Virus record (IMG/VR): IMGVR_UViG_3300032272_000003
Coordinates: 64,001 to 128,000 of that record
Reading direction: 5' to 3' (one strand)
DNA: 64,000 bases
Source of the DNA: a virus
In this document: piece by piece, positions 7,085 to 64,000 of the stretch
Position numbering within the stretch: the first letter of the stretch is position 1
Layout of the letters: every line of letters begins with the position of its first letter
The notes under the pieces: model-generated
What the model saw: only the letters and a program-made list of their open reading frames with translations
Database searches by the model: none
What the model was told of the DNA's origin: nothing
Made by a program: the position numbers and the translations under genes

Positions 7085-7092
7085 TATTTATA
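7085..7092 (-). promoter_or_regulatory. Late promoter TATAAATA with no protein-sized ORF downstream
   Basis: Exact consensus. Confidence 0.65.
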
Positions 7093-11173: not shown

Positions 11174-11370
11174 CTATAATTCGTCTGCTTTAATCAGCAT
11201 CGTGGCCCATTCTCTCACACTACGGCGTGGGTGTGGTACCAGGTAAATGATTGCTGGATGTCTTTCAACCACAATCAACTGTTCATCCGTAGTCAGCTTA
11301 TTAAAAGCCACTACTGTGTTGTATAACGCCTTTTCAATAGTGATTGGTTCTTGTACCCTACAATCTACTG
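11174..11370 (-). pseudogene. Start-less remnant of the helical-repeat small-protein family
   Basis: Open frame ...FNKLTTDEQLIVVERHPAIIYLVPHP...LIKADEL with no 5' ATG or SD. Confidence 0.45.
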
Positions 11371-14920: not shown

Positions 14921-14945
14921 TCGACTAGATCGACAATAACAGATT

Positions 14946-14973
14946 AAGGGTCACTTCGGTGGCCCTTTTCTTT
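14946..14973 (+). terminator. Rho-independent terminator
   Basis: AAGGGTCAC-TTCG-GTGGCCCTT followed by a T-rich tract. Confidence 0.9.
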
Positions 14974-14976
14974 ATG

Positions 14977-14984
14977 TATAAATA
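14977..14984 (+). promoter_or_regulatory. Late promoter TATAAATA, 5 nt before ATG (leaderless)
   Basis: TATAAATA-GATAC-ATG. Confidence 0.85.
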
Positions 14985-14989
14985 GATAC

Positions 14990-15586
14990 ATGGCTATCCG
15001 TAAACTATTTTCAAATCTACCAAACATCCGTCGTGTTGCAGACCTCGTGGGTGCATCCCCTGTAGGGGAACCACAGAAGCAATATGCATGGGAACTCTGG
15101 ATTACCGGAGGCGTTGCTGCTCATATGGGTGATATCAGATTCTTCGCCAAGACAGTATCACTTCCACAGAAATCAATCGAGCCTATCTATACAGAGCTGG
15201 CCGGGGTCAAGTATCAATACCCAGGCAAGGATACAAGTGCAAGAACAATCACGGCGACGTTCTTTGACGATGAACACCTTACTGTATACAACTATATGAA
15301 GAAATGGATCGATCTCATGCATACCCCTGGTGAAGGAGATGCACTGCCCAAGGCACAGACCGTAGCGAATATCGCTGTCAAGCTGAAGGATAGTACTGAC
15401 CTGGTACAAACATTAACTGTCAACATGCCAAACGCATTTATTATCGATCTTGGTGAGGTACCGTTAGATTACGAGACATCGGATGCTATCGAGATCACAG
15501 TAACATTCGCATTCGACGATCCTACTGTTGAAGACGGACAGAAGCTCGGTGATATTACCGATCTATTGAAGAGTGTATTAAATTAA
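14990..15586 (+). CDS. Tail tube-like paralogue (gp19/gp54 fold)
   Basis: Shares FFAKTVS.P, T.TF.DDE and KLKD with 14420..14920. Confidence 0.85.
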   Translation: MAIRKLFSNLPNIRRVADLVGASPVGEPQKQYAWELWITGGVAAHMGDIRFFAKTVSLPQKSIEPIYTELAGVKYQYPGKDTSARTITATFFDDEHLTVYNYMKKWIDLMHTPGEGDALPKAQTVANIAVKLKDSTDLVQTLTVNMPNAFIIDLGEVPLDYETSDAIEITVTFAFDDPTVEDGQKLGDITDLLKSVLN

Positions 15587-16290
15587 TGGCCAATGAATCT
15601 TTAAAAGACCTACAAGCAAGACGTGCATCGTCTAAACCCGCCCGTTCATATTTGTGGCGGGTTGTATTGCCCGACCTTCGGATCACTAATGCCCTGGTAC
15701 CGGTACACGCCGATGCTGTTGCTGCCCTACAAGAGCTTGCCAGTGACCAGCATATGAATGTGAGTGCCCGGATCAATACTATGACAACCCCATACCGCAC
15801 ATTCGAATCACAACAAGCAATGGATAAGAATGGTGTATGGAACTATGCCGGGAAGCATAACACTCCTGAGATTACAATTGAAGTGTTCGAGGAAGAGGAT
15901 GGTTCAACCCTTCACTACTTCGATACGTGGATGAAGCTCATTCGTAATGTGTCAGATGACACCTATAACCCACCTGCTATCTATAAGAACCCTATCGTAT
16001 TCATTCGTATGGATACACAGAGACAGGACTTTGAGGTTACTATATACGAGGGATACTTCATACAGACCATCAACGAAGTTTCAAACGAATATGAAGGTAA
16101 CGACCTTGTACGTTACCAGGTAAACCTAGTAGGGGATAACATAATTCATCATCGTATATCCAACAACCAGCAATACCAGGCAGGATTAAGCCCATTACAG
16201 ATCAGTCCGAGTTTAAGGCAAACCCTGACTAATAACATCGGTGATGCGATTAAGAAGATAGCAGGTGATGCTAAGAATTTGCTACCATAA
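15586..16290 (+). CDS. Tail tube-like paralogue (gp54-like initiator)
   Basis: PARSYLW, YAGK, YFDTWMKLI and YNPPAIYK tube-fold motifs. Confidence 0.7.
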   Translation: MANESLKDLQARRASSKPARSYLWRVVLPDLRITNALVPVHADAVAALQELASDQHMNVSARINTMTTPYRTFESQQAMDKNGVWNYAGKHNTPEITIEVFEEEDGSTLHYFDTWMKLIRNVSDDTYNPPAIYKNPIVFIRMDTQRQDFEVTIYEGYFIQTINEVSNEYEGNDLVRYQVNLVGDNIIHHRISNNQQYQAGLSPLQISPSLRQTLTNNIGDAIKKIAGDAKNLLP

Positions 16291-21459: not shown

Positions 21460-21821
21460 TGGCGATAACCGATAGAAAGAGCCTATACAGGCATGTCCTG
21501 GTAGATGGTAATAAAGAGATTGATCCACTTGACAGTGTAATACCTGATATGGAATTCTCTGATGACCGCTCACGTTCAATTGTAATCAGTGAAGACTTAC
21601 TGGGTAGACTCGATTTAATATCCTTCTACCTATATGACACGTCTGACTTCTGGTGGTTGATTGCCCAACATAACGATCTCCTGAACCCTATGGAAGATAT
21701 GTATATTGGTCAGGTACTCATGATACCGTCACAGATCGATTTCTATAACATCTACAATGCCAATGCTATTACCGACGATGTAGAGAAGGTATTCAGTAAG
21801 CGTGAGCTGGAGCTTGAATAA
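21459..21821 (+). CDS. gp53: Baseplate wedge LysM-like protein (gp53-like)
   Basis: RLDLISFYLY....WWLIAQHN...NP.....GQVLMIP. Confidence 0.85.
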   Translation: MAITDRKSLYRHVLVDGNKEIDPLDSVIPDMEFSDDRSRSIVISEDLLGRLDLISFYLYDTSDFWWLIAQHNDLLNPMEDMYIGQVLMIPSQIDFYNIYNANAITDDVEKVFSKRELELE

Positions 21822-23041
21822 TGGCTGAGACTAGTATCTTCGAATACAATTTAGATAACAAACAGGTCATACGACTGTCTGCTGATGTAACCGATCCATT
21901 GTCAGTCCTAAGCATCTCCACGGTTGTCCTAGAAGAACAGCTTGGTTTAGGGTCTCCTATGCTATCAATCAACATGGTCGATGGCCTGGGTGATGTATTG
22001 GGTAAGTTCTTATTCGATCCCACAATGGTTTTTACACTATCATATGGCCTCACTGAAGACACTCTCCAGAATGCCACATTCAAATTCGCCTCAAGCAAGT
22101 ATGAGAATGCAAGTTCTGGGTCAAGCACAAATATATTAACGACCGTGAACTTCATAGGAAGCCACTGGGAAGGTTTTCTCAAGGATACCCATAGTAGGTC
22201 ATGGACACAGAAGCGTTACTCCGCAGTGGCGAGCACGATAGCTGCTGAGATAGGATACACGGCTGATGTAGAAGAGACCAAAGACTTCCATAACGTTATA
22301 CAACCTGACTGGACCAATTATCAATTGTTAAAGTGGATGGCAGAGAATGCTGTTAATACTAAAGACATCGGTGGGTACTTTGTGGGCCTTACCCTGGACA
22401 AGCGACTCATCTTCCGCCCTGTTGATCATTTAGCAGAGGTGGTACCAGCAGCGACCTACGTATTGAACGATTCCGATAAGAAACAATCCGATGATGAGTT
22501 GGATTACTTCAGAGCATTCCTTGTGAAGAACGATTATGTGTCGTCAGTAGCCAAGGCAGCATCCGGTGTTAAGTATATGTACTTCGATTTTGCCACTGGA
22601 CAGTTTATTAATGGCGAGAGTAAGGTATCTACCTCCAAGCAGAGACAATTAAGTGATGTATTTTACATTGCCGATGAGCATGAGAACGCTCCAAATAGAT
22701 ATTATGGTGGTCGTAATACTAATACTCCATCATTATCAGAGAATAATGTATTAAATTCGGCTAATTCAATTAATAGGGCAACCATTTCTATCGAGGGTAA
22801 CACCTTTTTACATGCCGGTGACGTATTAAATATGATTATTCCATCTAATTTAGCACATATTGATAATGTAATTGAGGAATATTACTCTGGCTACTGGTTA
22901 ATTGAAAGAATTGCTCATGTATTTAATATGAATAATGGTAAAGTCGTGTCGAATATTACATTAATTCGCCCTGGTATCAACTCACCTCTTATATCTGGCT
23001 ATGTCAAGTCTACCAAAGGCAAGAAGATCACCGAATTATAA
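21821..23041 (+). CDS. Baseplate hub protein (gp27/GpD-like)
   Basis: HSRSW, IQPDWTNYQLL, GNTFLHAGD and YSGYWLIERIAH motifs. Confidence 0.8.
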   Translation: MAETSIFEYNLDNKQVIRLSADVTDPLSVLSISTVVLEEQLGLGSPMLSINMVDGLGDVLGKFLFDPTMVFTLSYGLTEDTLQNATFKFASSKYENASSGSSTNILTTVNFIGSHWEGFLKDTHSRSWTQKRYSAVASTIAAEIGYTADVEETKDFHNVIQPDWTNYQLLKWMAENAVNTKDIGGYFVGLTLDKRLIFRPVDHLAEVVPAATYVLNDSDKKQSDDELDYFRAFLVKNDYVSSVAKAASGVKYMYFDFATGQFINGESKVSTSKQRQLSDVFYIADEHENAPNRYYGGRNTNTPSLSENNVLNSANSINRATISIEGNTFLHAGDVLNMIIPSNLAHIDNVIEEYYSGYWLIERIAHVFNMNNGKVVSNITLIRPGINSPLISGYVKSTKGKKITEL

Positions 23042-23230
23042 TACCCACAGTGCTAGATGGAGTGCTGTGGCTTCCTCGGTCCTAAACCTTTTACGAATCC
23101 TCTCATATGCATTACTTGACTGACTGATAGCAGCCAACTGTACTTCTGGTTCAGGGTCATCCATATGACCAATGAAAGACCAATGCTCTTCTATCAGCCC
23201 CAAACGATATTTGATATAGACCTGGCCCAT
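23036..23230 (-). CDS. Helical-repeat (DUF4116-like) small protein
   Basis: DPEPEVQLAAI; ends LHLALWVL; likely start 23230 (TGATG overlap). Confidence 0.75.
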   Translation of the reverse strand: MGQVYIKYRLGLIEEHWSFIGHMDDPEPEVQLAAISQSSNAYERIRKRFRTEEATALHLALWVL

Positions 23231-23466
23231 CACATCACCCACAATGCCATGTGTAAGTTTCTGGCTTCATCGGTTGGCTTCTTGATACATCTATACGCCC
23301 ACCTGGACGTTTTAATAGCCGCCAACTGTATTGTCTCAGATGGATTTTCGATGTACATGATGTCAGTCCCTATAATGGATATGTGATCCACTTTGTCATC
23401 TTCAGACAAACTCATTATCCACCGTGTTTTACTAGCACTATATGTAATATAATCCTCGGTAATCAT
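23230..23466 (-). CDS. Helical-repeat (DUF4116-like) small protein
   Basis: YIENPSETIQLAAI; ends LHMALWVM. Confidence 0.8.
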   Translation of the reverse strand: MITEDYITYSASKTRWIMSLSEDDKVDHISIIGTDIMYIENPSETIQLAAIKTSRWAYRCIKKPTDEARNLHMALWVM

Positions 23467-23738
23467 AAGCACCACATCGCTTTATGTAGATTGGTCACTT
23501 CTTGTGAAGGATTCTTAATGTGGTCATAACAATCAGGATGATGAGCAACAGCATATAGCTGTACTTCCTCTAAGGGATTATCAATAAGCCCGAAGAGGTG
23601 TATGTGATTCCTAACAATATATGACTGAGCATGTAGCGTCGGGTTGGGTATCATACCGATACTATAGGCCGACGTGGCAATCAGAGTTAATTGCTGTGTT
23701 GTGCTTAGATTTGAATAATCATGTTCAGAATCGACCAT
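23463..23738 (-). CDS. Helical-repeat (DUF4116-like) small protein
   Basis: IDNPLEEVQLYAV; ends LHKAMWCL. Confidence 0.8.
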   Translation of the reverse strand: MVDSEHDYSNLSTTQQLTLIATSAYSIGMIPNPTLHAQSYIVRNHIHLFGLIDNPLEEVQLYAVAHHPDCYDHIKNPSQEVTNLHKAMWCL

Positions 23739-23986
23739 CACATCACCCACAGTGCCATGTGTAAGACTTTGGCTTCATCAGTAGGATTATCAATACAGTC
23801 ATAGGCCCACCTGGTCGTTTTAATAGCCGCCAACTGTACAGCCTCTGATGGATTATTAATATACATGATGTCAGACCCCTTACCGCTTATAGAATTTACA
23901 GCTAATAGTTGGTCTTCTTCACTCATAGCATTGTACATAGCAAATTGGTCACGCGCCCATTCTTCATAGTCAGTATCCACTTCCAT
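23738..23986 (-). CDS. Helical-repeat (DUF4116-like) small protein
   Basis: YINNPSEAVQLAAI; recent DNA-level duplicate of the 23230 gene. Confidence 0.8.
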   Translation of the reverse strand: MEVDTDYEEWARDQFAMYNAMSEEDQLLAVNSISGKGSDIMYINNPSEAVQLAAIKTTRWAYDCIDNPTDEAKVLHMALWVM

Positions 23987-24010
23987 ATTCTTATGCCTTT
24001 GTAATTTGTA

Positions 24011-24373
24011 TTATAAAGCCCACAAGGCTTTATCTAATATTACCACCTCACAACAAGGATTGTCAATACACTGGATGGCTAATGGACTGGCTATCACCGC
24101 CATGACCTGTAACTCATTGGGTGGGTTATCGATATAAAAGATAGAACATGGATGGGCCTTAACTGCAATCTCCATAGCCCAAATAGGTGGATTAGGGACA
24201 TGCATGATAGCATATCCATTGTTCCTGAGAATCTGTACATTATCATCGCGTTTCATCCTCAAAATCATATGATTTTGTATGGCATTGTGTATAGGAATAA
24301 AATCACATGTAAGATTACTCAGCCACTTGGCATCCTTACCGGCTAACAGATGCTTACGTACCTGACCTATCAT
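24011..24373 (-). CDS. Helical-repeat (DUF4116-like) small protein
   Basis: Three ~22-aa NP repeats; ends LDKALWAL. Confidence 0.8.
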   Translation of the reverse strand: MIGQVRKHLLAGKDAKWLSNLTCDFIPIHNAIQNHMILRMKRDDNVQILRNNGYAIMHVPNPPIWAMEIAVKAHPCSIFYIDNPPNELQVMAVIASPLAIQCIDNPCCEVVILDKALWAL

Positions 24374-24756
24374 AGCTTGTACAACGCTGTGTGTAGTGTG
24401 ATTGCTTCTTCACATGGGTTCTTTATATAATGCAAGGCAATATCCATCTCAGTGACGGCTATCATCTGGGCAGCTTCACATGGGTTCTTTATAAGTGCAA
24501 TACATAAGGGATTACCACGGACAGCCACAGTCTGCTCATGCTCTGTAGGATCGTCAAGATACATGATATAGTACCCATTAAACTTCAGAGCCACCGCAAC
24601 CTCGTATGGATCGCCTACTGATACTTTAGGATTGTATTTGGCCTCCCAAGCTGCCCGATGCTCCCTAGACAACCGGCTGTCATTCGTAGAGCCTTTGGGC
24701 CTGCCCCTCTTTTGTTTAATATTATTAAACATCTTTATATCATTTTGATCGATCAT
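24370..24756 (-). CDS. Helical-repeat (DUF4116-like) small protein with AT-hook-like KRGRPKG
   Basis: IKNPCEAAQMIAV repeats; ends LHTALYKL. Confidence 0.8.
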   Translation of the reverse strand: MIDQNDIKMFNNIKQKRGRPKGSTNDSRLSREHRAAWEAKYNPKVSVGDPYEVAVALKFNGYYIMYLDDPTEHEQTVAVRGNPLCIALIKNPCEAAQMIAVTEMDIALHYIKNPCEEAITLHTALYKL

Positions 24757-25130
24757 AACTGATACAAAGCGTTGTATAAAAGGGTCGCTTCCTTGGTAGG
24801 CTTCTCAATATACCCATAGGCCGACTCACATTCTTCAATAGCCACCAGTTGGACTTTTTCACAAGGATCGGTCATGTATTGGATGGCAGAGCCATTGGCA
24901 TGGACAGCAACCAACATATCCCCTATGTGAGGTTTGACCAGGAACAGGTACATGAACCCGTTCTTATAGAGCCTTGTTCGTATTTCTTCATCGTGGTTCA
25001 CGTCAGTATCCTCTAATGTAACAACACCATCGATCAGGTCAGCACTATACTTGACTCCTAACTTGGATGCGAACACAATAGCCGCACTCTTTAATAGCAT
25101 GATATCAAGCTCTTCATAAAAAGCTATCAT
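24753..25130 (-). CDS. Helical-repeat (DUF4116-like) small protein
   Basis: AVHANGSAIQYMTDPCEKVQLVAI; ends LYNALYQL. Confidence 0.8.
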   Translation of the reverse strand: MIAFYEELDIMLLKSAAIVFASKLGVKYSADLIDGVVTLEDTDVNHDEEIRTRLYKNGFMYLFLVKPHIGDMLVAVHANGSAIQYMTDPCEKVQLVAIEECESAYGYIEKPTKEATLLYNALYQL

Positions 25131-25136
25131 TACTCA

Positions 25137-25220
25137 TTACCCACCCATCAGATCATCGTACATCATATATGCGATGAGACCCATACTGATTGTTATACTA
25201 ATCCATGATACTATAATCAT
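25137..25220 (-). CDS. 27-aa hydrophobic peptide
   Basis: SD AAAGGA; MIIVSWISITISMGLIAYMMYDDLMGG. Confidence 0.5.
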   Translation of the reverse strand: MIIVSWISITISMGLIAYMMYDDLMGG

Positions 25221-25238
25221 TTTCCTTTCTCCAGTTAA

Positions 25239-25649
25239 TCATAGTATATTGGCTTTGTATTGTAATGTCAACTCTGGGTCAGAGTGAGTCCATACAACCT
25301 CTTCAATAAGATGACCGCCATCAGCATGGCAACATAATAACACACAGTAGATGACATCACCGCCTGCCTCTGTATACTCGTCAACATACCCCTCATCAAT
25401 CCTTAAATGGAACAACATCTCCATGGCCAGTTGTTTATGATCCATGTCAGAGAAAAAGACCTCATCCAAATATACACTGAAAAGCTCTTCACCAGTGACA
25501 GTACGGTAATTCATATGAATATAATCGAGTGACTTCTCGTTCCATAAGCCAAAGAATGTATCAATCTTCTCAACCATAGGTATTAGATCATCGACAGTCA
25601 TATCCGATACCCGCCTATGGACGGCGACTCTCTTCTGTTGATGCTTCAT
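25239..25649 (-). CDS. Small protein, WTHPDPE..YKA..L subfamily
   Basis: Ends VVWTHSDPELTLQYKANIL. Confidence 0.85.
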   Translation of the reverse strand: MKHQQKRVAVHRRVSDMTVDDLIPMVEKIDTFFGLWNEKSLDYIHMNYRTVTGEELFSVYLDEVFFSDMDHKQLAMEMLFHLRIDEGYVDEYTEAGGDVIYCVLLCCHADGGHLIEEVVWTHSDPELTLQYKANIL

Positions 25650-26023
25650 AGGATATTGGCCTTATATATTAACTCCATCTCAGGGTCAGGGTGAGTCCAT
25701 ACAACTTCGTCCTGTACCGCACACTCATAGATGCTGTTTGGGATTTTATTAGACATCCTTAAATATATTTTGTATATGGTACCGACATTCTTCTCGTCAA
25801 CAATAAGCTCATCTAAAATTAATATTGATAAATGATGTATCGATTTTCTTATGTCTGGGTCATCCTTGGCGAAAAAGTGTGTACAGAACTTATCCTCATT
25901 ATTAATTGATACTGTCTTTACCTGAACATTAAATAGGTTGGAACTGTGCTTGTTATAATAATCCCTTACTTTCTGAGCGATAGGGTAAAAGTCTTCATAT
26001 GAATATGATGATATATCACTCAT
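25646..26023 (-). CDS. Small protein, WTHPDPE..YKA..L subfamily
   Basis: Ends VVWTHPDPEMELIYKANIL. Confidence 0.85.
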   Translation of the reverse strand: MSDISSYSYEDFYPIAQKVRDYYNKHSSNLFNVQVKTVSINNEDKFCTHFFAKDDPDIRKSIHHLSILILDELIVDEKNVGTIYKIYLRMSNKIPNSIYECAVQDEVVWTHPDPEMELIYKANIL

Positions 26024-26358
26024 AATATACTGGCCTTATAGTTAATCTCTACACCGGGGTCAGGATGAGTCCATATAGGTATATATGTACCTTCCGTTCC
26101 GCCTATTAACAATTGATAAATGTTATATGGTCTTATATCGATTTCGACCCTGGCGATCTCTTCTAATACACGTCTAATATGGACAGTCATACTTTCCTCA
26201 AATCTATCAAAGAAGCAGATGTCGATAAAGTCACCATTCTCTAGGTAGGCATTAATAAAGACATATCCAATATCATCGGGCATCGCATCGGAGAGTTCAT
26301 ATATCCTTTCCATGATAGGTTTGAACTCAGCCGGGGTATACTCGGATATCCTTTTCAC
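26020..26358 (-). CDS. Small protein, WTHPDPE..YKA..L subfamily
   Basis: Ends IWTHPDPGVEINYKASIL. Confidence 0.85.
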   Translation of the reverse strand: MKRISEYTPAEFKPIMERIYELSDAMPDDIGYVFINAYLENGDFIDICFFDRFEESMTVHIRRVLEEIARVEIDIRPYNIYQLLIGGTEGTYIPIWTHPDPGVEINYKASIL

Positions 26359-26612
26359 CCCACATGCTCCCTGGTTGCCAGGACGGCTTTGATCTTATCC
26401 ATGTATTCCTTCACCGGGCGACGTGGTACTTCAACATCGTTCTCCCAGTCAGAGCCAATATACTCATGGCACAGTTCACAGCACCGTGGCCCACGGTAAT
26501 GGCCTATAGCTGAGTGAACAGCCCTTGCACTCTTAAGCACATTCAGCAATCGTGGTGTGGATAGCTTATTCAATTGTTCTGCTGTTAGGTAGTTGAGATT
26601 ACTTTTACTCAT
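26355..26612 (-). CDS. Hypothetical protein unrelated to its neighbours
   Basis: KLSTPRLL...CCELC...LATREHV; coupled at both ends. Confidence 0.8.
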   Translation of the reverse strand: MSKSNLNYLTAEQLNKLSTPRLLNVLKSARAVHSAIGHYRGPRCCELCHEYIGSDWENDVEVPRRPVKEYMDKIKAVLATREHVG

Positions 26613-27007
26613 AATTTGTTTGCCTTATAGGTTAGCTTGACCTCTGGATCAGGATGGGTCCATACGTTACAATGTAGTACTGTTTTCTCAGAAACAGCAT
26701 CTACAGTATCTATAGTATCTGGATAATAGTAACATTCCATGGACAGTTTATAAATCATATCACCACTATATTCATCAATCTCATTTAACATAATACTAGC
26801 CAAGTACTCAATTGTAGTATCATCAATATATTCATGATGGAAATAGTATAGTTGACACCTAACACCATCCACGGTATGAACAATCACACGTCTACCATTT
26901 GTGTTACCTCTTTCCACCCACGCTTTGTGGCAATCAATCATTTGAGCCGCAATAGGTATAAACTCTTTGTGAGTCAGTTCTGATAATCGCTTGTATTCAG
27001 ATGTCAT
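26609..27007 (-). CDS. Small protein, WTHPDPE..YKA..L subfamily
   Basis: Start ATG 27007 after GGGAG; ends VWTHPDPEVKLTYKANKL. Confidence 0.85.
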   Translation of the reverse strand: MTSEYKRLSELTHKEFIPIAAQMIDCHKAWVERGNTNGRRVIVHTVDGVRCQLYYFHHEYIDDTTIEYLASIMLNEIDEYSGDMIYKLSMECYYYPDTIDTVDAVSEKTVLHCNVWTHPDPEVKLTYKANKL

Positions 27008-27012
27008 AAATA
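27005..27012 (+). promoter_or_regulatory. Late promoter CATAAATA, 5 nt before gp5 ATG (leaderless)
   Basis: CATAAATA-CTCCC-ATG. Confidence 0.8.
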
Positions 27013-27017
27013 CTCCC

Positions 27018-27833
27018 ATGGATGAAATGACATTTAACGGTAACTATAGAGCCATTGTAACAGATAACAACGATCCTTTGCAAGCAGGAAGGGTTAGGGT
27101 TCGGGTTATGCCCATGTTTAAGGATGTTGACGCTGACGCTCTGCCCTGGGCGGTACTGGCTGATGCCTTTATGGGATCGCCTAATGCCGGGTCAGTTAAT
27201 ATACCTGAGATAGGTGCCAACCTATTTGTATTCTTTGAGGCCGGTGACCACCGGTACCCAGTATACTTTGCCACTGCTCCATCCATACAGAACGGTACAC
27301 CCGATCTGCCTACCCTCACCAGGGAAGCAGACGATTCAGTTACCGATATCAATACCAATGCTAAGAAAGGTGTAGGGACAGCCTCGGGTAGCTCCTGGGA
27401 TGAGCCTGGTAGCGCCTATGCAGCCGTGTACCCAGAGAATAAGATTTGGAAGACCACCGATGGCCTATTGATAGAATTGGACGATACAGACGGTCAGCTT
27501 CGCTTCCACATATACCATCCAGCCGGTACCCGTATGGAGATCGATAAGGATGGCAACGAGGTTAACCACACACAGGGTAATCGATTTACTGTTGTCGTCG
27601 GTGATGATAAAGTTTATATCACAGGGAATGGCGACATTACAGTAGATGGGGACATGGGTATTAAGGTGGGTGGTGATACCAAGATAGATGTTACCGGTAA
27701 TGCTGATATTATTGCTGCTGGGGATGCCTCAGTAGAGAGTGTTAACTCAACTGTTAAGGGGTCAGCGAGTGTTACTATAGATGGTGGCCCTGCTGTCACT
27801 ATCACTGGTGGATTAATTAGTCTTAATCCTTAA
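27018..27833 (+). CDS. gp5: Baseplate central spike (gp5/VgrG-like OB fold plus beta-helix, no lysozyme)
   Basis: YRAIVTDNNDPLQAGRVRVRV, LPWA, YPENK, ELDDT and VxGD repeats. Confidence 0.92.
   Translation: MDEMTFNGNYRAIVTDNNDPLQAGRVRVRVMPMFKDVDADALPWAVLADAFMGSPNAGSVNIPEIGANLFVFFEAGDHRYPVYFATAPSIQNGTPDLPTLTREADDSVTDINTNAKKGVGTASGSSWDEPGSAYAAVYPENKIWKTTDGLLIELDDTDGQLRFHIYHPAGTRMEIDKDGNEVNHTQGNRFTVVVGDDKVYITGNGDITVDGDMGIKVGGDTKIDVTGNADIIAAGDASVESVNSTVKGSASVTIDGGPAVTITGGLISLNP
27054..27083 (-). promoter_or_regulatory. Sigma70-type promoter inside gp5 driving the 27007-23036 island
   Basis: TTGCAA-18-TACAAT with TG extension. Confidence 0.5.
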
Positions 27834-28171
27834 AGCAATACCATTGCTTTGTATTCAAGTATCTGTGGATGGCTCTCATCGTACCATACTGTCTTATAAT
27901 CATCTGTTTGGTGGTCATCAAACCCTATAGCAACTGCAACTGATATTGTCTTGTCAGACCATAATCTATCAAACCCAGATTTTAACGATTCATTATTATG
28001 ACAGTACCCATACCCATACCATACATGATCGATGGTATCGAACCGGACAGCAATATAAAGCTCCAATGGGTAAGTGTTTATAACACTCTTGAGGTGCTTC
28101 CTGACACTCTCAATAGCAGCATTCTTCTTTCTGAGATTATGGATGACTTCCCAATATGCTTTATTATTCAT
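27830..28171 (-). CDS. Small protein, W...HP.Y..YKA..L family
   Basis: Ends VWYDESHPQILEYKAMVLL. Confidence 0.85.
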   Translation of the reverse strand: MNNKAYWEVIHNLRKKNAAIESVRKHLKSVINTYPLELYIAVRFDTIDHVWYGYGYCHNNESLKSGFDRLWSDKTISVAVAIGFDDHQTDDYKTVWYDESHPQILEYKAMVLL

Positions 28172-28174
28172 ATC

Positions 28175-28495
28175 TTAGAATACCTCGTTTGCAATAAACC
28201 CTAAAGTGTCTGGATGATCATCATTAAACCAGATATGCTTGATTACCCTATAATCATTAATGTCAATATATTCAATCGACACCCCTAATGTGTTGCAACA
28301 AATCTTCTGTTCCAGTAATTTAGTATTACCCATGTCATTAAGAGGATTAATTGTGTAGGGTATATTGTATAAATGTACCCAACGCCCGAACGAAAATCCA
28401 AAAACACGTAAATGTCTATTCCTGTGTGGTGATATACCACGGACACTCTCGACCATCTTCTCATTAATTTCAATTGACATTCGTTTATAATTCAT
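28175..28495 (-). CDS. Small protein, W...HP.Y..YKA..L family
   Basis: Ends IWFNDDHPDTLGFIANEVF. Confidence 0.8.
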   Translation of the reverse strand: MNYKRMSIEINEKMVESVRGISPHRNRHLRVFGFSFGRWVHLYNIPYTINPLNDMGNTKLLEQKICCNTLGVSIEYIDINDYRVIKHIWFNDDHPDTLGFIANEVF

Positions 28496-28545
28496 TTAGA
28501 CCTTTTAATCCTTAAACAAATCTCCCAATACCGTTCCCTACTCAT
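28492..28545 (-). CDS. 17-aa bridging mini-ORF
   Basis: MSRERYWEICLRIKRSK; ATGA overlap at both ends. Confidence 0.5.
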   Translation of the reverse strand: MSRERYWEICLRIKRSK

Positions 28546-28901
28546 AATTGATCTGCCTTATACTGTAAATACTCTGGATCATCTAGGTTCTCCCATACAA
28601 CCTTACGGTGCATAAACATCTTTTCATCTACATACTGAATGGCAATAGCAATCGAAAAACCCATCAAATATGTATATAGCTCAATTAAGTTAACGGTACC
28701 ATATTCTGGTGACGGTACCAAGGTACTACGTAGCCACCCATATTGTGTGGTGTACGTATAAAGCCTAAATGAATTGACTGAATTGACTGAATTGACTGAT
28801 TTAAATTGTGTACGGGGGTTATGGGTTAGTATACCCATACTCATACTCACCAGGTCATCAACATTACCAACCCGCTTAACGATATCATTCATCATCGTCA
28901 T
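28542..28901 (-). CDS. Small protein, W...HP.Y..YKA..L family
   Basis: Ends VVWENLDDPEYLQYKADQL. Confidence 0.85.
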   Translation of the reverse strand: MTMMNDIVKRVGNVDDLVSMSMGILTHNPRTQFKSVNSVNSVNSFRLYTYTTQYGWLRSTLVPSPEYGTVNLIELYTYLMGFSIAIAIQYVDEKMFMHRKVVWENLDDPEYLQYKADQL

Positions 28902-29287
28902 AACACTGTATCCGCTATGAACTCAGGGTAGTACGAGCTATCCTTATTAATCCACACCTCATGAGCTACCCCATGCTTACTACCATTGGTAGAGGTGACG
29001 ATCATGATCGATACTATATCATGATGTATTAGATGACACCCAACATACCATTCAACCCTCGTCGCCCATTCCCTACGTTGCTCTAATGTACTCTTATAGC
29101 TCACATCAGAAGCATATCTGAACGATTCAATCCTATTCCATCGTGATAGATTATCAACATCCGATGGGGCATACCATCCAACAACCCATGCATCATACGC
29201 CTGATAAGCTCCCATGTTCTCAGAGAGTCCCCATAGCTTGGATGATACTGTATTGGCTATCTGGTTGGCTAACATACTATTCATCAT
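28898..29287 (-). CDS. Small protein, W...HP.Y..YKA..L family
   Basis: Ends VWINKDSSYYPEFIADTVL. Confidence 0.85.
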   Translation of the reverse strand: MMNSMLANQIANTVSSKLWGLSENMGAYQAYDAWVVGWYAPSDVDNLSRWNRIESFRYASDVSYKSTLEQRREWATRVEWYVGCHLIHHDIVSIMIVTSTNGSKHGVAHEVWINKDSSYYPEFIADTVL

Positions 29288-29526
29288 AACACATACAACG
29301 CTTTATGTAACATTATCGCTTCTTCTGTTGGGTTCTTAATATACCGGATCATCATATTACTCACTGCTACCAATCTTAATTGATAATCATTAGGGATACA
29401 TGTGATCTTCCTGACAGTATGAACGGCATTCTCCATGCATTTGATCCTCCAGATTGGATACGAACTATACTTCTGTTCCAATTGAGATAGTATACCATCG
29501 AGATGATGTTTATCGAGAGGACTCAT
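29284..29526 (-). CDS. Helical-repeat small protein
   Basis: IPNDYQLRLV...YIKNPTEEAIMLHKALYVL. Confidence 0.85.
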   Translation of the reverse strand: MSPLDKHHLDGILSQLEQKYSSYPIWRIKCMENAVHTVRKITCIPNDYQLRLVAVSNMMIRYIKNPTEEAIMLHKALYVL

Positions 29527-29765
29527 AGCTCATACAACGCTTTATGTAACAACGTTGCCTCCGGGCATGGGTTATTAAGGTATTGGTGTAGATTGTGACA
29601 CGCCACCAATCTTAATTGATAATACATAGGAATATCAATTATTCTCTTAACAGTTCTAACGGCATTATGCCTGTAATAAACCCCTACCAGTGGATGAGAT
29701 GATTTATACATCGTTTCCAATTGGTATAGGACAGTATCAAGATGATGTTTATCGATGGGTGTCAT
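29523..29765 (-). CDS. Helical-repeat small protein
   Basis: Paralogue of 29284; ends LHKALYEL. Confidence 0.85.
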   Translation of the reverse strand: MTPIDKHHLDTVLYQLETMYKSSHPLVGVYYRHNAVRTVKRIIDIPMYYQLRLVACHNLHQYLNNPCPEATLLHKALYEL

Positions 29766-30022
29766 AATCGCCACAACGCTTTATGAGTCAGTTTGGCTTC
29801 CTCGGTAGGATTATTAATGTAACTAATCATGTAGGAACCTATGGCCACCGTTCTTAATTGTAAATCTTCGGGGATATTACATTTACCGGAAAGACACTTC
29901 ACTAAATCTGATATCATCCGATACGGGTACCTCTCATTGGGGGTCATAGTATTAAGCTTGATATCTATGCTGTCGAGTATCCTACGTAGGTTATGTTCTT
30001 CGATGGGTGTTATAGGTTTCAT
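29762..30022 (-). CDS. Helical-repeat small protein
   Basis: Ends NPTEEAKLTHKALWRL. Confidence 0.85.
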   Translation of the reverse strand: MKPITPIEEHNLRRILDSIDIKLNTMTPNERYPYRMISDLVKCLSGKCNIPEDLQLRTVAIGSYMISYINNPTEEAKLTHKALWRL

Positions 30023-30270
30023 AGCTCATACAATGCATTTTGAATCAGCACTGCCTCTTCGCATGGTTCATCTATATACCGGATCATATATACAGCACAT
30101 TCTACAAGTCTAACCTGTATGTCATCGGGGATACCACCACCATAGATTAACAACACGATGCTCCGTATCGACATCCTATGGGATATCTTGACAACCTCAC
30201 GTTCAGCACTATCATGCTTATTCAATAGATACTCGATTTCCTTAAGCTTCTCGGTAAGCTCCTGACTCAT
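30019..30270 (-). CDS. Helical-repeat small protein
   Basis: Ends PCEEAVLIQNALYEL. Confidence 0.85.
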   Translation of the reverse strand: MSQELTEKLKEIEYLLNKHDSAEREVVKISHRMSIRSIVLLIYGGGIPDDIQVRLVECAVYMIRYIDEPCEEAVLIQNALYEL

Positions 30271-30521
30271 AACCCGTGTATGGCCTTATGGAGGAATGTG
30301 ACATCTTTAGTAGGCTGTATCAGGTGTGCCCAGGATGTAGAGGCTAGTTCGACGGCCCTGATCTGTAAATCCACTGGTAGGGGTTTATTACAATCCTCAA
30401 GTTTATACCGCAGATTTACACGGGAAAAGAACGTTTTCATGCCTCTGTTGTTGTCGGTAAGGAGTGCCCTCTCAAGCCGACGACATGCTCTCTTTACTTT
30501 GCTCGCTTCTCTATTAGCCAT
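30267..30521 (-). CDS. Helical-repeat small protein
   Basis: Ends PTKDVTFLHKAIHGL. Confidence 0.8.
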   Translation of the reverse strand: MANREASKVKRACRRLERALLTDNNRGMKTFFSRVNLRYKLEDCNKPLPVDLQIRAVELASTSWAHLIQPTKDVTFLHKAIHGL

Positions 30522-30524
30522 TAT

Positions 30525-30785
30525 CTATGACTCCCATAGTGCTTTGTGCATCAAAGTAGCCGCTGGTGTTGGATCAGTAATATGTCCATACAGGTACGGG
30601 CTACACCTTATCATTTGTAATTGAACCTCTTCAGGGATAACCTCTATCCCTCTAACGATTGTAATGATCTGAATCTGAATCTGAATCTGAAAAGCTGTTT
30701 GAAACGATTCTACCTTATCTTCATCACATGTGTCAATCAACATTTGCATGCTGGTCATCAAATCCATGAAATCGTTTTTCTTCAC
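30525..30785 (-). CDS. Helical-repeat small protein
   Basis: Ends PTPAATLMHKALWES; (ATCTGA)4 expansion. Confidence 0.8.
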   Translation of the reverse strand: MKKNDFMDLMTSMQMLIDTCDEDKVESFQTAFQIQIQIQIITIVRGIEVIPEEVQLQMIRCSPYLYGHITDPTPAATLMHKALWES

Positions 30786-31189
30786 CCCTTAAGGTTCTCC
30801 ATCTTATATTCTGTATAGTGGCTATGGCCAGTGTTCTCCCATAGGATAGCACTGTCTGTCTGGGCGACCGGATGATTCACGTCCAGGCCGGTGGCGTCCA
30901 GGAGGGTGATCTTAACAGCAACAGCACATGACCCATTGAATATCCCCTGTAGCAATGCACAAGTAATATCATGGTAAATATAATCCTCATAAGAGTCGGC
31001 ATCGATTTTCACCCACCCCAGGCCATGGTGGTATGCCTCTATCAGGAACCCTATCTGTTCTGGGCATTTATAATCCCGTCTAAGGAATATCGTAACGGCA
31101 TCGGTGATGTCCTTGCACAACTGTACCTGGGAATCCAACACTTCCTGAATCTTCATCTGTTCGTCAATCTGTTTCTGTTCTTCTGTCAT
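30782..31189 (-). CDS. Small protein, W...HP.Y..YKA..L family
   Basis: Ends ILWENTGHSHYTEYKMENLKG. Confidence 0.85.
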   Translation of the reverse strand: MTEEQKQIDEQMKIQEVLDSQVQLCKDITDAVTIFLRRDYKCPEQIGFLIEAYHHGLGWVKIDADSYEDYIYHDITCALLQGIFNGSCAVAVKITLLDATGLDVNHPVAQTDSAILWENTGHSHYTEYKMENLKG

Positions 31190-31515
31190 AGGTTCTCTCC
31201 TGCTATGTATTGGTAATAATCTGGATGGGCTTCATCAACCCATATAACCTCACTAACCTCACTCACTTTACTGTTGGTCGGGTGTTGGTACCAGTACCAC
31301 CCGATCTTAAAGCCCACAGGGCTTTTCGTATTACTTAGTTGTAAAATCCTATCTCTCAGGATAGGATGGTAAATATTACACTGTGACCTCTCTATGAGCA
31401 TGGTACTCCGCCATTTACAATCAGAATAGTACATCACCTCAAAGATAGAGGAACGCTTTTCACCAATCGATTTAATGATATCACTGGCTATACCTACGGC
31501 AACATGATGTTTCAT
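31186..31515 (-). CDS. Small protein, W...HP.Y..YKA..L family
   Basis: Ends IWVDEAHPDYYQYIAGENL. Confidence 0.85.
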   Translation of the reverse strand: MKHHVAVGIASDIIKSIGEKRSSIFEVMYYSDCKWRSTMLIERSQCNIYHPILRDRILQLSNTKSPVGFKIGWYWYQHPTNSKVSEVSEVIWVDEAHPDYYQYIAGENL

Positions 31516-31850
31516 AGCTTCTCTCCTGCTACATATTCAAGATATTGAGGATGGTCCACATCCTCCCATAATATTACCTCAGATAATAATGTACCAGTCA
31601 TACGATTAATATTACCAAACCCCCCACCATGTATTTGTAACTTAAAGCATAATGGGTTCTTTAATGCGAATGCTGTCTTGATCCTAGTCTTTAATATATC
31701 TTCATAAATAACCGCTGTTGGACCCTTAAATTTAGAACAACTCTCCCATCCCCAGTATAGGTCATAATGCATAAGTACACATGTCCCTTCAGAAGCCACA
31801 GCAATTGCTATTATCTTATCTCTTAATTTAACAATACCTGCATTATTCAT
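31512..31850 (-). CDS. Small protein, W...HP.Y..YKA..L family
   Basis: Ends LWEDVDHPQYLEYVAGEKL. Confidence 0.85.
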   Translation of the reverse strand: MNNAGIVKLRDKIIAIAVASEGTCVLMHYDLYWGWESCSKFKGPTAVIYEDILKTRIKTAFALKNPLCFKLQIHGGGFGNINRMTGTLLSEVILWEDVDHPQYLEYVAGEKL

Positions 31851-32218
31851 AACCTCTCCCTCGCTACGTATTCGATAAAATCTGGATTATATGTATCCTC
31901 CCATATAATAACCCCATCTAAATCTAATAAAGGATGTTTGTGTGCTGGTCTGTGTATTGATCTGGAGGGATAACGCATTTGTATTTGTAACTTGAATATT
32001 ATAGGAGAGTGCGTGACAAATGATGTCTGTATCCTACCCCTTACCATATCATGATAGGTTCTCACTCTCTTCTCCCCGGTAGTAAAAAATATACAACAGT
32101 CCGCCCATTCAAGACGTTTAGAGTCATAAAACGTGATCACACATCTATGATCATCGTCAAAACTACCAGACATCAGTATTATCTCATTCGTTAATTCATT
32201 AATACCTGCATTATTCAT
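31847..32218 (-). CDS. Small protein, W...HP.Y..YKA..L family
   Basis: Ends IWEDTYNPDFIEYVARERL; shares MNNAGI start with 31512. Confidence 0.85.
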   Translation of the reverse strand: MNNAGINELTNEIILMSGSFDDDHRCVITFYDSKRLEWADCCIFFTTGEKRVRTYHDMVRGRIQTSFVTHSPIIFKLQIQMRYPSRSIHRPAHKHPLLDLDGVIIWEDTYNPDFIEYVARERL

Positions 32219-32607
32219 AACATCATCCCAGCAATAAAGCCCAGGTAGTCTGTATGATCTGTATCAGCCCACACCATTATCAATCCTTCTTTGGGCGGAT
32301 GCTCATTATAATTACCCCGACCCCAATCCCAACTACCTGACCCCATCCAGACCATATGATCCCAATCAGATATTATCGCTATACCTATAAGGCTTGGGTA
32401 GGGTAGATACCACGTTAACGTATTCCTGATATTGTTTCTCTCTATTGTGCCAACCCCAGCATCAAACTCAATATTAGGAATAAAATGATCCTTAAAACAA
32501 TACACCAGTCGATAGAAACTATTATTAGTATCGAAGGCATCCCGTTGGGTGGTCTTGGTCTTCTTAATAATCATATCCGTGACCTCTCCCACGTCTCTAC
32601 TGATCAT
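32215..32607 (-). CDS. Small protein, W...HP.Y..YKA..L family
   Basis: Ends VWADTDHTDYLGFIAGMML. Confidence 0.85.
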   Translation of the reverse strand: MISRDVGEVTDMIIKKTKTTQRDAFDTNNSFYRLVYCFKDHFIPNIEFDAGVGTIERNNIRNTLTWYLPYPSLIGIAIISDWDHMVWMGSGSWDWGRGNYNEHPPKEGLIMVWADTDHTDYLGFIAGMML

Positions 32608-32930
32608 AACATATCGTCCGATTTATATTCGAGGTAATATTCATGCTCTTTATTCTCCCATATTAACACATTAGGGTCAACTAACACATCACCAGTGAAC
32701 ATTTTGTCATCAAATACGAGCTTAAGGGCAACAACGTTGTCATTAAAGGCGTCATTAATCTTACGACGAATCATTCGATAGTCGCCCAACATGGGTATGC
32801 ACTTGAAGTATCTGTTCCAGCCCCTCTCAGGGATGTATCCGAATAAAGCCATACTATAATACTGCTCACCCATGTTTCGTGCCACCTTGGTAATGTTACC
32901 AGAGAGGGTATTACTCGTATTATCAGTCAT
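32604..32930 (-). CDS. Small protein, W...HP.Y..YKA..L family
   Basis: Ends IWENKEHEYYLEYKSDDML. Confidence 0.85.
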   Translation of the reverse strand: MTDNTSNTLSGNITKVARNMGEQYYSMALFGYIPERGWNRYFKCIPMLGDYRMIRRKINDAFNDNVVALKLVFDDKMFTGDVLVDPNVLIWENKEHEYYLEYKSDDML

Positions 32931-33265
32931 AACATATCGTCCGCTTTGTATTCCAGGTATCTACTGTGCTCTTCATCCTCCCATAATAACATACTAGGGT
33001 CAGGGGCATCAATCATTCCAACAGCCCATTGTTGAGAGAATATTAGCTTAACAGCTACTATACTATGAATGTTTCCATAATAACCAATGTATCTTTTAAA
33101 TTGACCATATCTATCCTTAGCATGTCGGGATGCGAAGGTCATATAATATGACCACCCTTCACTATCATGATAGACCCATAACCCGCACGAGATATACCAT
33201 GTCGAGTATTCCAGGGAATTGTTTACGATCATACTTGCCAACTTCGATATGGTATCGGCATTCAT
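32927..33265 (-). CDS. Small protein, W...HP.Y..YKA..L family
   Basis: Ends LWEDEEHSRYLEYKADDML. Confidence 0.85.
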   Translation of the reverse strand: MNADTISKLASMIVNNSLEYSTWYISCGLWVYHDSEGWSYYMTFASRHAKDRYGQFKRYIGYYGNIHSIVAVKLIFSQQWAVGMIDAPDPSMLLWEDEEHSRYLEYKADDML

Positions 33266-33603
33266 AACATCACATCAGCAACAAATACATCATAATCCTT
33301 ATGTTCTTTATTCTGCCATAGGATAATCTTTGATCTTGGTGCAGCAAATGGGGCAATGGCAATGGCAATTATATCCTCATCCACACCCACCCCAAATACC
33401 TTCAGACTCTCACTGATCCTGAGTACCTGACAACGGGTTGCATCCATATCGAACCCTACTAACCATGACCCCATGGCGGAGTTAATACTGGCAGCATGAT
33501 AGGCATACATACTGTAGTACCGGTAATAAGTAGTACCGTTACCCCTCTTATGGAGATGCTTAGCGGCTTCTGCTATCTTCTCAGCCAGGACATCTACATT
33601 CAC
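33262..33603 (-). CDS. Small protein, W...HP.Y..YKA..L family
   Basis: Ends LWQNKEHKDYDVFVADVML. Confidence 0.85.
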   Translation of the reverse strand: MNVDVLAEKIAEAAKHLHKRGNGTTYYRYYSMYAYHAASINSAMGSWLVGFDMDATRCQVLRISESLKVFGVGVDEDIIAIAIAPFAAPRSKIILWQNKEHKDYDVFVADVML

Positions 33604-33956
33604 AACATCACCTCAGCTATAAATACATCGTAATCGATATGCTCTTTATTCTCCCACATGATAATCTTATCATTGCCCTTGTCACTCATACTTACAAGGG
33701 CAATAGCAATTACCTTATCATCATCAATGTAATCAGCGATATTACGTTGTATATGGAATACCTGGCTCTGACTGGCTACAATAAGAAGTCCTCCACCGAA
33801 CCAACCACTATTGGCTAGGTTGAAGTATCCAGCTTTATATACCACTACCCGAAACTTCCAGTGCTGACCACCAGACTGCCGGTAAATTGCCTTCGCAGTA
33901 TCGGAGATTTTCATGGCCAGGCCATGTACATTAACACCTTTTACGAAATAGTTCAT
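33600..33956 (-). CDS. Small protein, W...HP.Y..YKA..L family
   Basis: Ends MWENKEHIDYDVFIAEVML. Confidence 0.85.
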   Translation of the reverse strand: MNYFVKGVNVHGLAMKISDTAKAIYRQSGGQHWKFRVVVYKAGYFNLANSGWFGGGLLIVASQSQVFHIQRNIADYIDDDKVIAIALVSMSDKGNDKIIMWENKEHIDYDVFIAEVML

Positions 33957-34312
33957 AGGCTCTCGCTCGCAATATAATCAAGGTACTCAGGATGATCCTC
34001 GTTCTTCCATATGATTTGTTCATATATTTGGCCATTGTAATTGAAAGCAATCGCTTTAACAGCAACACACTTCCAATCTTCAATCCAAATACGTAAAGCA
34101 CTTCTTAAGTCAAGCCTATCTGTGGTCATTGCAAAATCATTGCTAATGATGCTAATACCAAATCCAGAATACCATATTTCATTACTATATGGTGACACCC
34201 TGACACCAACTACACTATTTAATTCACATAGTTGTTCGTAACTATTTAATTCACATAGTTGTTCGTAAAGAGTATTCTCAATACTCTCGATTGTTCTATT
34301 ATCACTACTCAT
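33953..34312 (-). CDS. Small protein, W...HP.Y..YKA..L family (first gene of island)
   Basis: Ends IWKNEDHPEYLDYIASESL; internal 27-bp tandem duplication. Confidence 0.85.
   Translation of the reverse strand: MSSDNRTIESIENTLYEQLCELNSYEQLCELNSVVGVRVSPYSNEIWYSGFGISIISNDFAMTTDRLDLRSALRIWIEDWKCVAVKAIAFNYNGQIYEQIIWKNEDHPEYLDYIASESL
34214..34267. repeat. Perfect 27-bp tandem duplication
   Basis: ACTATTTAATTCACATAGTTGTTCGTA x2. Confidence 0.95.
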
Positions 34313-34356: not shown

Positions 34357-34386
34357 ATATTAACCTAATAAATAAGGGTATGTCAA
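34357..34386 (-). promoter_or_regulatory. Sigma70-type promoter for the 34312-27830 island
   Basis: TTGACA-18-TAATAT; the -35 lies in the first codons of gp25. Confidence 0.6.
34367..34374 (+). promoter_or_regulatory. Late promoter AATAAATA, 5 nt before gp25 ATG (leaderless)
   Basis: AATAAATA-AGGGT-ATG. Confidence 0.75.
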
Positions 34387-34769
34387 GACAAACTAAATAC
34401 AGTGATATCGAATTCCAAATGAAACGCGATGTCGGTGGTGAGATTATCATCGTCCATGGTGAAGATGCTATTGGACAATCGATCAAGAACATCCTCTCTA
34501 CCTACCCAGGCGAGAGAATCATGAATCCCGAGTTCGGTAGTAGGATGAGAGACTTCCTATTCGAGCCTATGAACATCATCACAGTTGAACGTATGGAGCT
34601 GGAGATCAGACGTGCACTCACTCAGTGGGAAGATCGTGTCAATATCATCCAGATCAAGGTCAAAGATGACCTGGACAACAACTACTACGACATCACAGTG
34701 ATGTACAAGATCAAGACTACTGGCCATACCGCTTTCTTCTCAGGGAAAGTCAGACCAGCAAGCGACTAA
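34380..34769 (+). CDS. gp25: Baseplate wedge subunit / sheath initiator
   Basis: YSDI, AIGQSIKNILSTYPGER..PEFGS...LFEP and WEDRV motifs. Confidence 0.95.
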   Translation: MSRQTKYSDIEFQMKRDVGGEIIIVHGEDAIGQSIKNILSTYPGERIMNPEFGSRMRDFLFEPMNIITVERMELEIRRALTQWEDRVNIIQIKVKDDLDNNYYDITVMYKIKTTGHTAFFSGKVRPASD

Positions 34770-34772
34770 ATA
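34765..34772 (+). promoter_or_regulatory. Late promoter ACTAAATA for gp6
   Basis: Consensus variant upstream of SD GGAG. Confidence 0.6.
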
Positions 34773-34789
34773 CGTTGACGGAGTAAAAC

Positions 34790-60721: not shown

Positions 60722-60861
60722 CCAGCGACACCAAGAAACAGGGCTATCACGAACCATCCCTTTACCAACCCCACAACACATATGGCTAATGTGGCTACAA
60801 GTGCCACGATAAAAGGGCGTCCACTTTAATCTTCAAGACCTTCTTCATGATATCACTCCTG

Positions 60862-63783: not shown

Positions 63784-63791
63784 AAATTCTC

Positions 63792-63977: not shown

Positions 63978-64000
63978 ATCATCAACAACAATACCTTTAT

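Follow-up and report, generated by a model that had tools for sequence, protein, structure and literature searches.

Hyperplastic regions and lineage-specific multigene families are known features of T4-like and other large phages. Terminal modules are also well described in viral proteins: the F-box-like PRANC domain of poxvirus ankyrin proteins comprises about 40 residues and has a known partner, Skp1, whereas the T4 internal proteins bear their capsid-targeting sequence at the N-terminus, where the prohead protease removes it. Here, we analysed a 64,000-nucleotide window, bases 64001-128000 of the single 147,679-bp phage contig IMGVR_UViG_3300032272_000003, whose region 23036-34312 contains arrays of small minus-strand genes with similar C-terminal ends, hereafter called tails. 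A preliminary description of this DNA had attributed one C-terminal tag to about 45 small proteins of unrelated families. In our analysis, the arrays are probably composed of old tandem duplicates of two hyper-divergent families, A and B, each with a C-terminal structural core; their open reading frames (ORFs) are trimmed to the last core leucine (Leu) and chained by YTATGA junctions, and the genes lie antisense around a gp5-like baseplate hub gene and are probably expressed early. Coordinates are those of the window unless the genome, i.e. the whole contig, is specified.

The region 23036-34312 comprises 31 small minus-strand genes bearing tails and one unrelated gene (26355-26612). Within-genome comparisons using BLASTP, phmmer and iterated hidden Markov models (HMMs) sorted the 31 genes into two families. 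Family A has 13 members in the region and 15 in the genome, the extra two being located at genome 34102-34839. Family B has 24 members in the genome: 18 in the region, five at 3973-6248 and one at genome 22122-22496. These 39 recognisable members represent about 15% of the phage's genes. Thus, the 31 genes reported initially are real, but the supposed 45 proteins of unrelated families resolve into two large paralog families plus scattered singletons and, given the paralogy of the 31 genes, they are not 45 independent events. Of the three body classes named earlier, two correspond to these families, in which all 31 genes fall, and the LEDGxY type forms a separate trio at 52380-53415. The contrast between conserved tails and diverging N-terminal parts was, on the other hand, confirmed: pairwise identity over the last 20 residues is 0.30 versus 0.14 for the rest of the protein in family B, and 0.44 versus 0.13 in family A. 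The terminal residue is Leu in 26 of the 31 region genes. The conserved tail residues have 2-4 synonymous codons each and, within the tails, the proportion of synonymous differences (pS) is saturated at about 0.72, with a nonsynonymous proportion (pN) of 0.17-0.49. Therefore, the paralogs are old and their tails are kept by selection on the protein and not on the DNA; the same pS value shows that there was no recent gene conversion among the duplicates.

Family A is a helical repeat of the DUF4116 type (PF13475). Its members in the region are organised in two minus-strand blocks. Block 1, delineated with an iterative within-genome HMM and the family A alignment, consists of seven genes at 23036-25130 (23036-23242, 23230-23475, 23463-23750, 23738-23986, 24011-24373, 24370-24756 and 24753-25130), with products ending in ..LHKALWxL, and block 2 consists of six genes (29284-29526, 29523-29774, 29762-30022, 30019-30270, 30267-30521 and 30525-30785). 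The family A profile retrieves external PF13475 proteins with E values down to 1e-25; several of them score above the gathering cut-off of PF13475 (24.9 bits), including P0003 (matched at 1.8e-25), with 25.3 bits, and P0005 (matched at 9.7e-25), with 59.4 bits. None of the family A members exceeds this cut-off, the best one of the window (24011-24373) reaching 14.6 bits (E 0.025) and the rest being unmatched. Nevertheless, family A and the external proteins share a repeat unit of about 23 residues (YIxNPxxEvQLxAV / YIxNPSEAVQLAAV), and the external proteins possess the same final half-repeat helix, NPTEKVKxL[HY]xxL[WY], as in ..NPTERVKALHKKLWVK, ..NPTEKAKQLYKTLIKERS, ..NPTQKVKELYNQLYNIANDK and ..NPYPSVIKLYNELTK. 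At the sequence level, this common half-repeat indicates that the tail of family A came with the domain, as the helix that caps the DUF4116 array, and it is present also in non-phage relatives. Some differences are obvious. The family A proteins are much shorter, with 1.5-3 repeats behind a variable N-terminus. The final helix of the external relatives is not Leu-terminated, as these proteins continue further or end in K, while family A ends exactly at Leu and carries an invariant alanine (Ala) where the external proteins have K, T, Q or E. No functional study of DUF4116 was found in the literature searched. An ortholog of 24753-25130, 98% identical, is present on a 1,434-bp ENA metagenome contig, and all three differences are in the N-terminal 18 residues.

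Family B, a fold family of the alpha/beta type, is new: when its profile was compared exhaustively by HMM with 1.84 billion cluster representatives (standing for ~15 billion known proteins), the phage's own proteins were the only matches apart from two fibronectin-III repeat proteins, which we judged spurious, and a word-indexed protein search gave nothing except the phage's own protein. All its genes in the window are on the minus strand. Subgroup B1, defined by BLASTP and HMM clustering and by alignment, has four genes at 25239-27019 (25239-25649, 25646-26023, 26020-26358 and 26609-27019), with ends of the form W-THPDPE..YKAN(I/K)L. Subgroup B2 has a first block of four genes (27830-28171, 28175-28495, 28542-28901 and 28898-29287) and a second block of ten genes at 30782-34312 (30782-31189 through 33953-34312), which end in W.n..H..Y..[YF][KIV]A...L. 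In the first block, two members are matched by the B2 HMM at E <1e-21 and two more weakly, at E ~0.005, and the family B profile recovers all four. As previously suggested, the five genes at 3973-6248 (3973-4365, 4362-4685, 4682-5029, 5026-5463 and 5460-6248), ending in ..YKAxxL or ..WEASKL, group with the W..YKA..L set by BLASTP, HMM and alignment: 5460-6248 is linked to B1 by BLASTP, and the B1 HMM gives E values of 0.005 and 0.049 on this set. In general, the B subgroups are barely joined by HMM (E 0.005-0.5), so additional members could easily be unrecognisable. The unrelated gene 26355-26612 (minus strand, 85 aa) lies within the B1 block and belongs to neither family; it matches phrog_9405 (unknown function), carries a CCELC..H motif and ends in ..REHVG without a tail, so the tail is not a property of array position.

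The AF2 model of the 32927-33265 protein, calculated with 22 paralogs as alignment, has a predicted local distance difference test score (pLDDT) of 91 and a predicted template modelling score (pTM) of 0.82, with structural elements in the order α-β-β-α-β-β-α. In this model, the tail (..Y.EYKADDML) corresponds to helix 103-111, with a pLDDT of about 95, and the nearly invariant Trp is situated in the last strand, β4. The conserved stretch of the family is contiguous and spans β3, β4 with the Trp and the tail helix. The confidence values, the amphipathic pattern of conservation and the continuity with the β3-β4 core suggest that the tail packs on the domain. Fold searches (Foldseek against PDB and BFVD, a wide VIA-align scan and ESM Atlas) gave nothing above background: the best match, the Rubisco small subunit, has an E value of 9e-3, and overall Z values do not exceed 7.3 with a TM score of about 0.5. 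Ribosomal protein L1-like domains and the little finger of Y-family DNA polymerases (PF11799, IMS_C) are also among these background-level matches, most of which stop short of the tail helix. The little finger, a four-stranded sheet with two helices, is the nearest ESM Atlas shape (TM 0.46-0.51; Z 4.0-4.5 in the PDB scan). However, such scores are at background for a fold as frequent as the two-layer sandwich; the aligned part is confined to residues 1-81 to 1-93, leaving out the tail helix, and family B has no sequence similarity with this domain.

The phage is a distant myophage relative of the T4 superfamily: for its tail sheath and its large terminase, the best matches come from the Alishewanella phages Slicko01 and Slickus01, with identities of just 34-40%. 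PHROG matches of the flanking and enclosed plus-strand genes place the region 23036-34312 within the baseplate gene cluster. The left boundary of the arrays is a tail/baseplate protein gene (21821-23041; phrog_350, E 5e-19), and the right boundary is formed by the wedge genes at 34380-37336, gp25-like (34380-34769; phrog_261, E 3e-37) and gp6-like (34790-37336; phrog_219, E 3e-34). The gp5-like hub/spike gene (26991-27833; phrog_430, baseplate hub subunit and tail lysozyme, E 2e-52) is located between the two antisense arrays, its 5' end overlapping 26609-27019 and its 3' end overlapping 27830-28171. In Slicko01, the orthologous baseplate genes are contiguous on a single strand and the ortholog of 21821-23041 directly adjoins the gp5-like gene; therefore, the minus-strand arrays 23036-27019 and 27830-34312 are lineage-specific insertions flanking the hub gene. 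No near-identical DNA was found in the phage record collection or in IMG/VR, and a scan of IMG/VR with the 21821-23041 protein as query detected no relative.

With regard to expression, a consensus scan revealed a candidate sigma-70-like promoter (TTGACA-18-TAATAT) on the minus strand at 34357-34386, immediately before the gene that opens the 34312-27830 array. For TATAAATA, the T4-type late-promoter motif, the window has 11 occurrences versus 5.1 expected, an enrichment attained in none of 100 shuffles. Its sites at 891, 2527, 3572, 7085, 14977, 17255, 55729, 56502 and 60862 are located just upstream of structural (late) genes, on the same strand as the gene, and none is present on the minus strand at 23-34.4 kb. 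Since the array strand carries a candidate sigma-70-like promoter and no TATAAATA, the array genes are probably expressed early. A minus-strand TATAAATA at 7085-7092 is located upstream of the five family B genes at 3973-6248, which are found among the head genes and, unlike the main arrays, may be expressed late.

We propose that, in this novel T4-superfamily myophage, the two lineage-specific families entered the baseplate cluster antisense to the gp5-like hub gene and on either side of it, and then would have expanded through tandem duplication. In both families, the C-terminal third would be a structural core under retention, while the N-terminal surfaces would diverge almost to randomness. 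The portion kept in family A would be the capping helix and, in family B, strand β4 with its invariant Trp, a turn and the final amphipathic helix. Each ORF would stop just past the last core Leu, its TGA overlapping the next ATG (YTATGA), so that the duplication unit would carry a Leu-stop-start junction and the genes would constitute translationally coupled chains. The resemblance of the A and B ends, Ala at -4/-5 and Leu at -1, would then mostly reflect two terminal amphipathic helices trimmed to their last anchor residue.

To what extent the two families share one tail is central to this proposal, and the idea of a common motif was not supported. A family A HMM search does not recover family B (E >10), and hhalign of the two alignments gives a probability of 0.14% with the tails left unaligned. 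With C-terminally anchored position-specific scoring matrices, the A tails scored on the B matrix rank in the top 3.6% of random 9-mers and the B tails on the A matrix in the top 3.1%; with a matrix refined on the 12 family B members having the A...L spacing, the median family A tail is found at the top 3.9%. In register, the A-versus-B tail profile score is 1.7 bits, compared with -2 to -8 for the other offsets tested. Judging from these profiles, the likeness of the tails is real in register but slight, being essentially Ala at -5 and Leu at -1. Likewise, a constant docking tail separable from variable bodies agrees poorly with a family A tail equal to the capping half-repeat of external relatives and a family B tail contiguous with the core of its domain.

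The motif statistics are, nevertheless, more complex. The regular expression of the preliminary description ([YFH]-[KIVN]-A-x2-3-[LM]-COOH) matches 28 C-termini (18 from B, seven from A and three others) versus 0.24 expected from its internal frequency; the excess over background is thus genuine as a count, but 25 of the 28 are within the two families and are not independent events. The looser A-x2-3-L end is present in 32 of the 39 family proteins. Outside the families, it is found in 11 of 213 proteins versus 2.25 expected, about five-fold more (p=2.5e-5). Leu is the last residue of 69 of the 258 ORFs, compared with an overall Leu content of 8.3%, and it terminates 37 of the 213 non-family proteins versus 17.6 expected (p=1.4e-5). 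In the Slicko01 control, A-x2-3-L ends (2 versus 1.9 expected) and Leu ends (21 versus 16.3 expected) are close to expectation, and Leu is found at two of 18 overlaps. Hence, of the signature initially described, a minimal form, Ala at -4/-5 and Leu at -1, is statistically real, specific to this phage and extends beyond the two families, while a single transplantable tag is not supported.

Several of these observations weigh against a purely structural origin of the tails. First, the A-x2-3-L-COOH end is enriched in non-family proteins (11 versus 2.25), unlike in Slicko01. Second, the invariant Ala and terminal Leu gained in family A hint at a constraint added in this phage. Third, the burial of the family B tail is deduced from confidence values and helix amphipathicity. 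Finally, no hidden paralogy of the 11 non-family proteins was found: pairwise links are weak, HMMs stall, hhalign is negative and the available AF2 model has a pLDDT of 46. All 11 are, however, encoded by small minus-strand genes, and many singletons lie in tandem runs of similar-sized orphan genes. Because of such runs, and since the B subgroups themselves are linked merely at E 0.005-0.5, hidden paralogy is plausible, and the simplest view could be that the extra singletons are far-diverged members of such families.

The same data could be explained by a true C-terminal recognition signal, A-x2-3-L-COOH preceded by an aromatic residue or His and by Lys, borne by at least 40 early proteins of different folds and serving as a docking tail or a degron for one host or phage reader. 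We consider this explanation unlikely, though it accounts for the enrichment outside the families and its absence from the nearest relative, for the 11 of 11 singletons being small minus-strand genes, for selection at the amino-acid level, for the lineage-specific Ala and terminal Leu of family A as compared with external DUF4116 proteins and for an in-register score that is the best among the offsets tested. It also draws on the ClpP-type protease that the phage encodes outside the head module. But the tails look like integral terminal helices of two different domains, their similarity is weak (p ~0.03-0.04 per member, and nothing by hhalign) and the shared information is low, essentially two residues. 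Furthermore, no PDZ or S41 protein that could read the tails was found in the phage genome, the record being 43% complete according to CheckV, which makes this absence weak evidence, and no partner was identified.

Known C-terminal signals were also considered. The ssrA-type degron has the consensus ..LAA-COOH, and clamp-binding tails have a consensus of the QL[SD]LF or QLxLxL type; our tails, compared by eye, match neither. An ssrA-type or ClpX C-motif degron was rejected, as the tails end in A-x2-3-L and no member ends in LAA. A sliding-clamp-binding tail was rejected too: the tails have no Gln-Leu start and no gp45 clamp domain (PF09116, PF02916) was found in the genome, though a clamp loader is present and the record is 43% complete. 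The ClpP-family gene is located outside the window, at genome 131119-131859 on the minus strand, near the clamp-loader gene (genome 128848-129777) and outside the head module; among the PHROGs, it matches 'ATP-dependent protease' best (E 9e-46) and 'head maturation protease' less well. We regard it as a lead, relevant to the degron variant alone. In its most explicit form, in which the phage would mark at least 43 small, probably early proteins of at least two folds with Ala at -4/-5 and a free Leu carboxyl end for one reader (for instance a host factor, or an unfoldase acting together with the ClpP-type protease of the phage), the recognition hypothesis is slightly more doubtful still; if true, it would mean timed removal or common docking of a diversifying arsenal.

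Alternatively, the tail could be shaped by the DNA, its last codons being fixed either by the needs of the following gene, whose ribosome-binding site and overlapping start lie in this 3' end, or by a YUAUGA termination-reinitiation context. Some counts are in line with this: 36 of the 48 4-nt overlaps end in YTA, a Shine-Dalgarno (SD) match of at least 4 nt lies inside the tail-coding DNA at nine of 26 family junctions (for example, GGAGAG encoding G-E) and the phage supplies tRNA-Leu(UAA) and tRNA-Leu(UAG). However, TTA and CTA together account for 11% of NNA codons, whereas Leu is the last residue at 25 of 26 family 4-nt overlaps, where TTA as well as CTA is used, and at 11 of 22 non-family ones. 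Members ended by TAA also have Leu, so the earlier conclusion that the ATGA overlap does not force this residue stands. Moreover, 17 Leu-terminal genes use CTT, CTG, CTC or TTG before TAA, TAG or TGA. YT precedes just 15% of non-overlapping ATG starts and, consequently, the terminal Leu is not a general start context. The SD frequency at family junctions (35%) is below that of ordinary starts (51%), the overlaps of Slicko01 lack the Leu preference, and the several synonymous codons per conserved residue together with saturated pS argue in the same sense. These counts rule out start context, SD and NNA codon usage as the main cause, and the whole DNA-level explanation seems very improbable. The two tRNA-Leu genes, whose tRNAs read CTA and TTA, the final codons of 52 genes, are among 22 tRNA genes clustered at genome 58291-61041 (minus strand). 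Lastly, that all tail-bearing proteins, A and B included, are one very old superfamily whose tail is the last trace of common descent is hardly credible, even if the tail is the most conserved part in every group and the extreme divergence of family B shows how fast drift can be, since family A, which has external relatives, is an all-helical repeat of the DUF4116 type and family B an alpha/beta sandwich, with no link by HMM or hhalign, so that common descent of A and B is close to refuted.

Several other genes had been assigned to the same set as looser members, at 52-53.4, 60-60.8 and 63-64 kb. They do not match the regular expression, and their only common feature is a hydrophobic terminal helix ending in L or M; hence their assignment is not maintained. 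The LEDGxY trio (52380-52721, 52709-53092 and 53089-53415, plus strand) is a third small orphan family with ends ..LWAL, ..ILSL or ..LIGM. Its sole external relative is a 71%-identity ortholog of 52709-53092 on a 751-bp ENA contig, in which the tail is kept. This ortholog and the 98%-identical one of family A indicate that related phages exist in nature. At 60009-60380 and 60377-60781, on the minus strand, two weakly related orphan genes (BLASTP E 0.001-0.07) end in ..IDIML and ..MSVSL. For proteins of this type, searches against Pfam, PHROG and ESM Atlas found no relative, HMM iteration did not enlarge the group, hhalign gave no link to family B and an AF2 model, based on a 6-sequence alignment, was unusable. 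A further series of small orphan genes, whose products have hydrophobic terminal helices, begins at 62970-64000 (minus strand) and extends beyond the window to genome 128848; its member 62970-63341 ends in ..FLAVTM. A 45-aa ORF ending in IKADEL (11174-11311, minus strand), initially taken as a remnant member, has a non-significant family A HMM score (E 0.59). The minus-strand singleton 7556-7816, ending in ..LLNAAEKL, is one of the 11 non-family A-x2-3-L-COOH proteins; others are encoded at genome 17351-17746, 20870-21175 and 128181-128516.

Two additional features of the contig were observed. Three consecutive plus-strand paralogs (166, 198 and 234 aa) follow the tail sheath gene at 14420-16290 and are probably of the tail-tube type. 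At the ends of the contig, genome 1-1139 is 92% identical to the last 1,154 bases (146526-147679), with diverged copies of two ORFs at each end; this could correspond to an imperfect terminal repeat or to two variants assembled together.

Collectively, the arrays constitute a clear case of extreme diversification within one genome, since about 15% of the genes of a novel phage keep just a C-terminal core. Their analysis also illustrates that short terminal motifs common to tandem paralogs are largely inherited with the stop-start junction, and that such genes are not to be counted independently. The A-x2-3-L end, on the other hand, is enriched beyond the families and specific to this phage; if it were a recognition signal, it would reveal a new way in which proteins are addressed or turned over during phage infection. 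By position and analogy, a role in host takeover or anti-defence could be suggested for the array proteins. Such functions are usually hidden in arrays like these, which makes families A and B worth screening.

As for the described systems, the PRANC proteins and the T4 capsid-targeting sequence are conceptual analogues, where numerous paralogs of a single virus likewise combine a variable region with a conserved terminal element. They differ from the present case in that the constant part of the phage proteins appears to be the fold core of each family; moreover, there is no sequence relation and no partner was found. The hyperplastic regions of T4-like and other large phages also resemble the arrays. 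In both cases, blocks of small, fast-evolving, mostly orphan genes are located between conserved modules, antisense to late genes, and are absent from the nearest relative. What distinguishes the arrays described here is that family B is without relatives in a set of about 15 billion proteins, that as many as 39 members, about 15% of the genes, belong to only two families, that the arrays flank the hub/spike gene, within the baseplate cluster, and that the chaining of the genes by ATGA overlaps is almost uniform.

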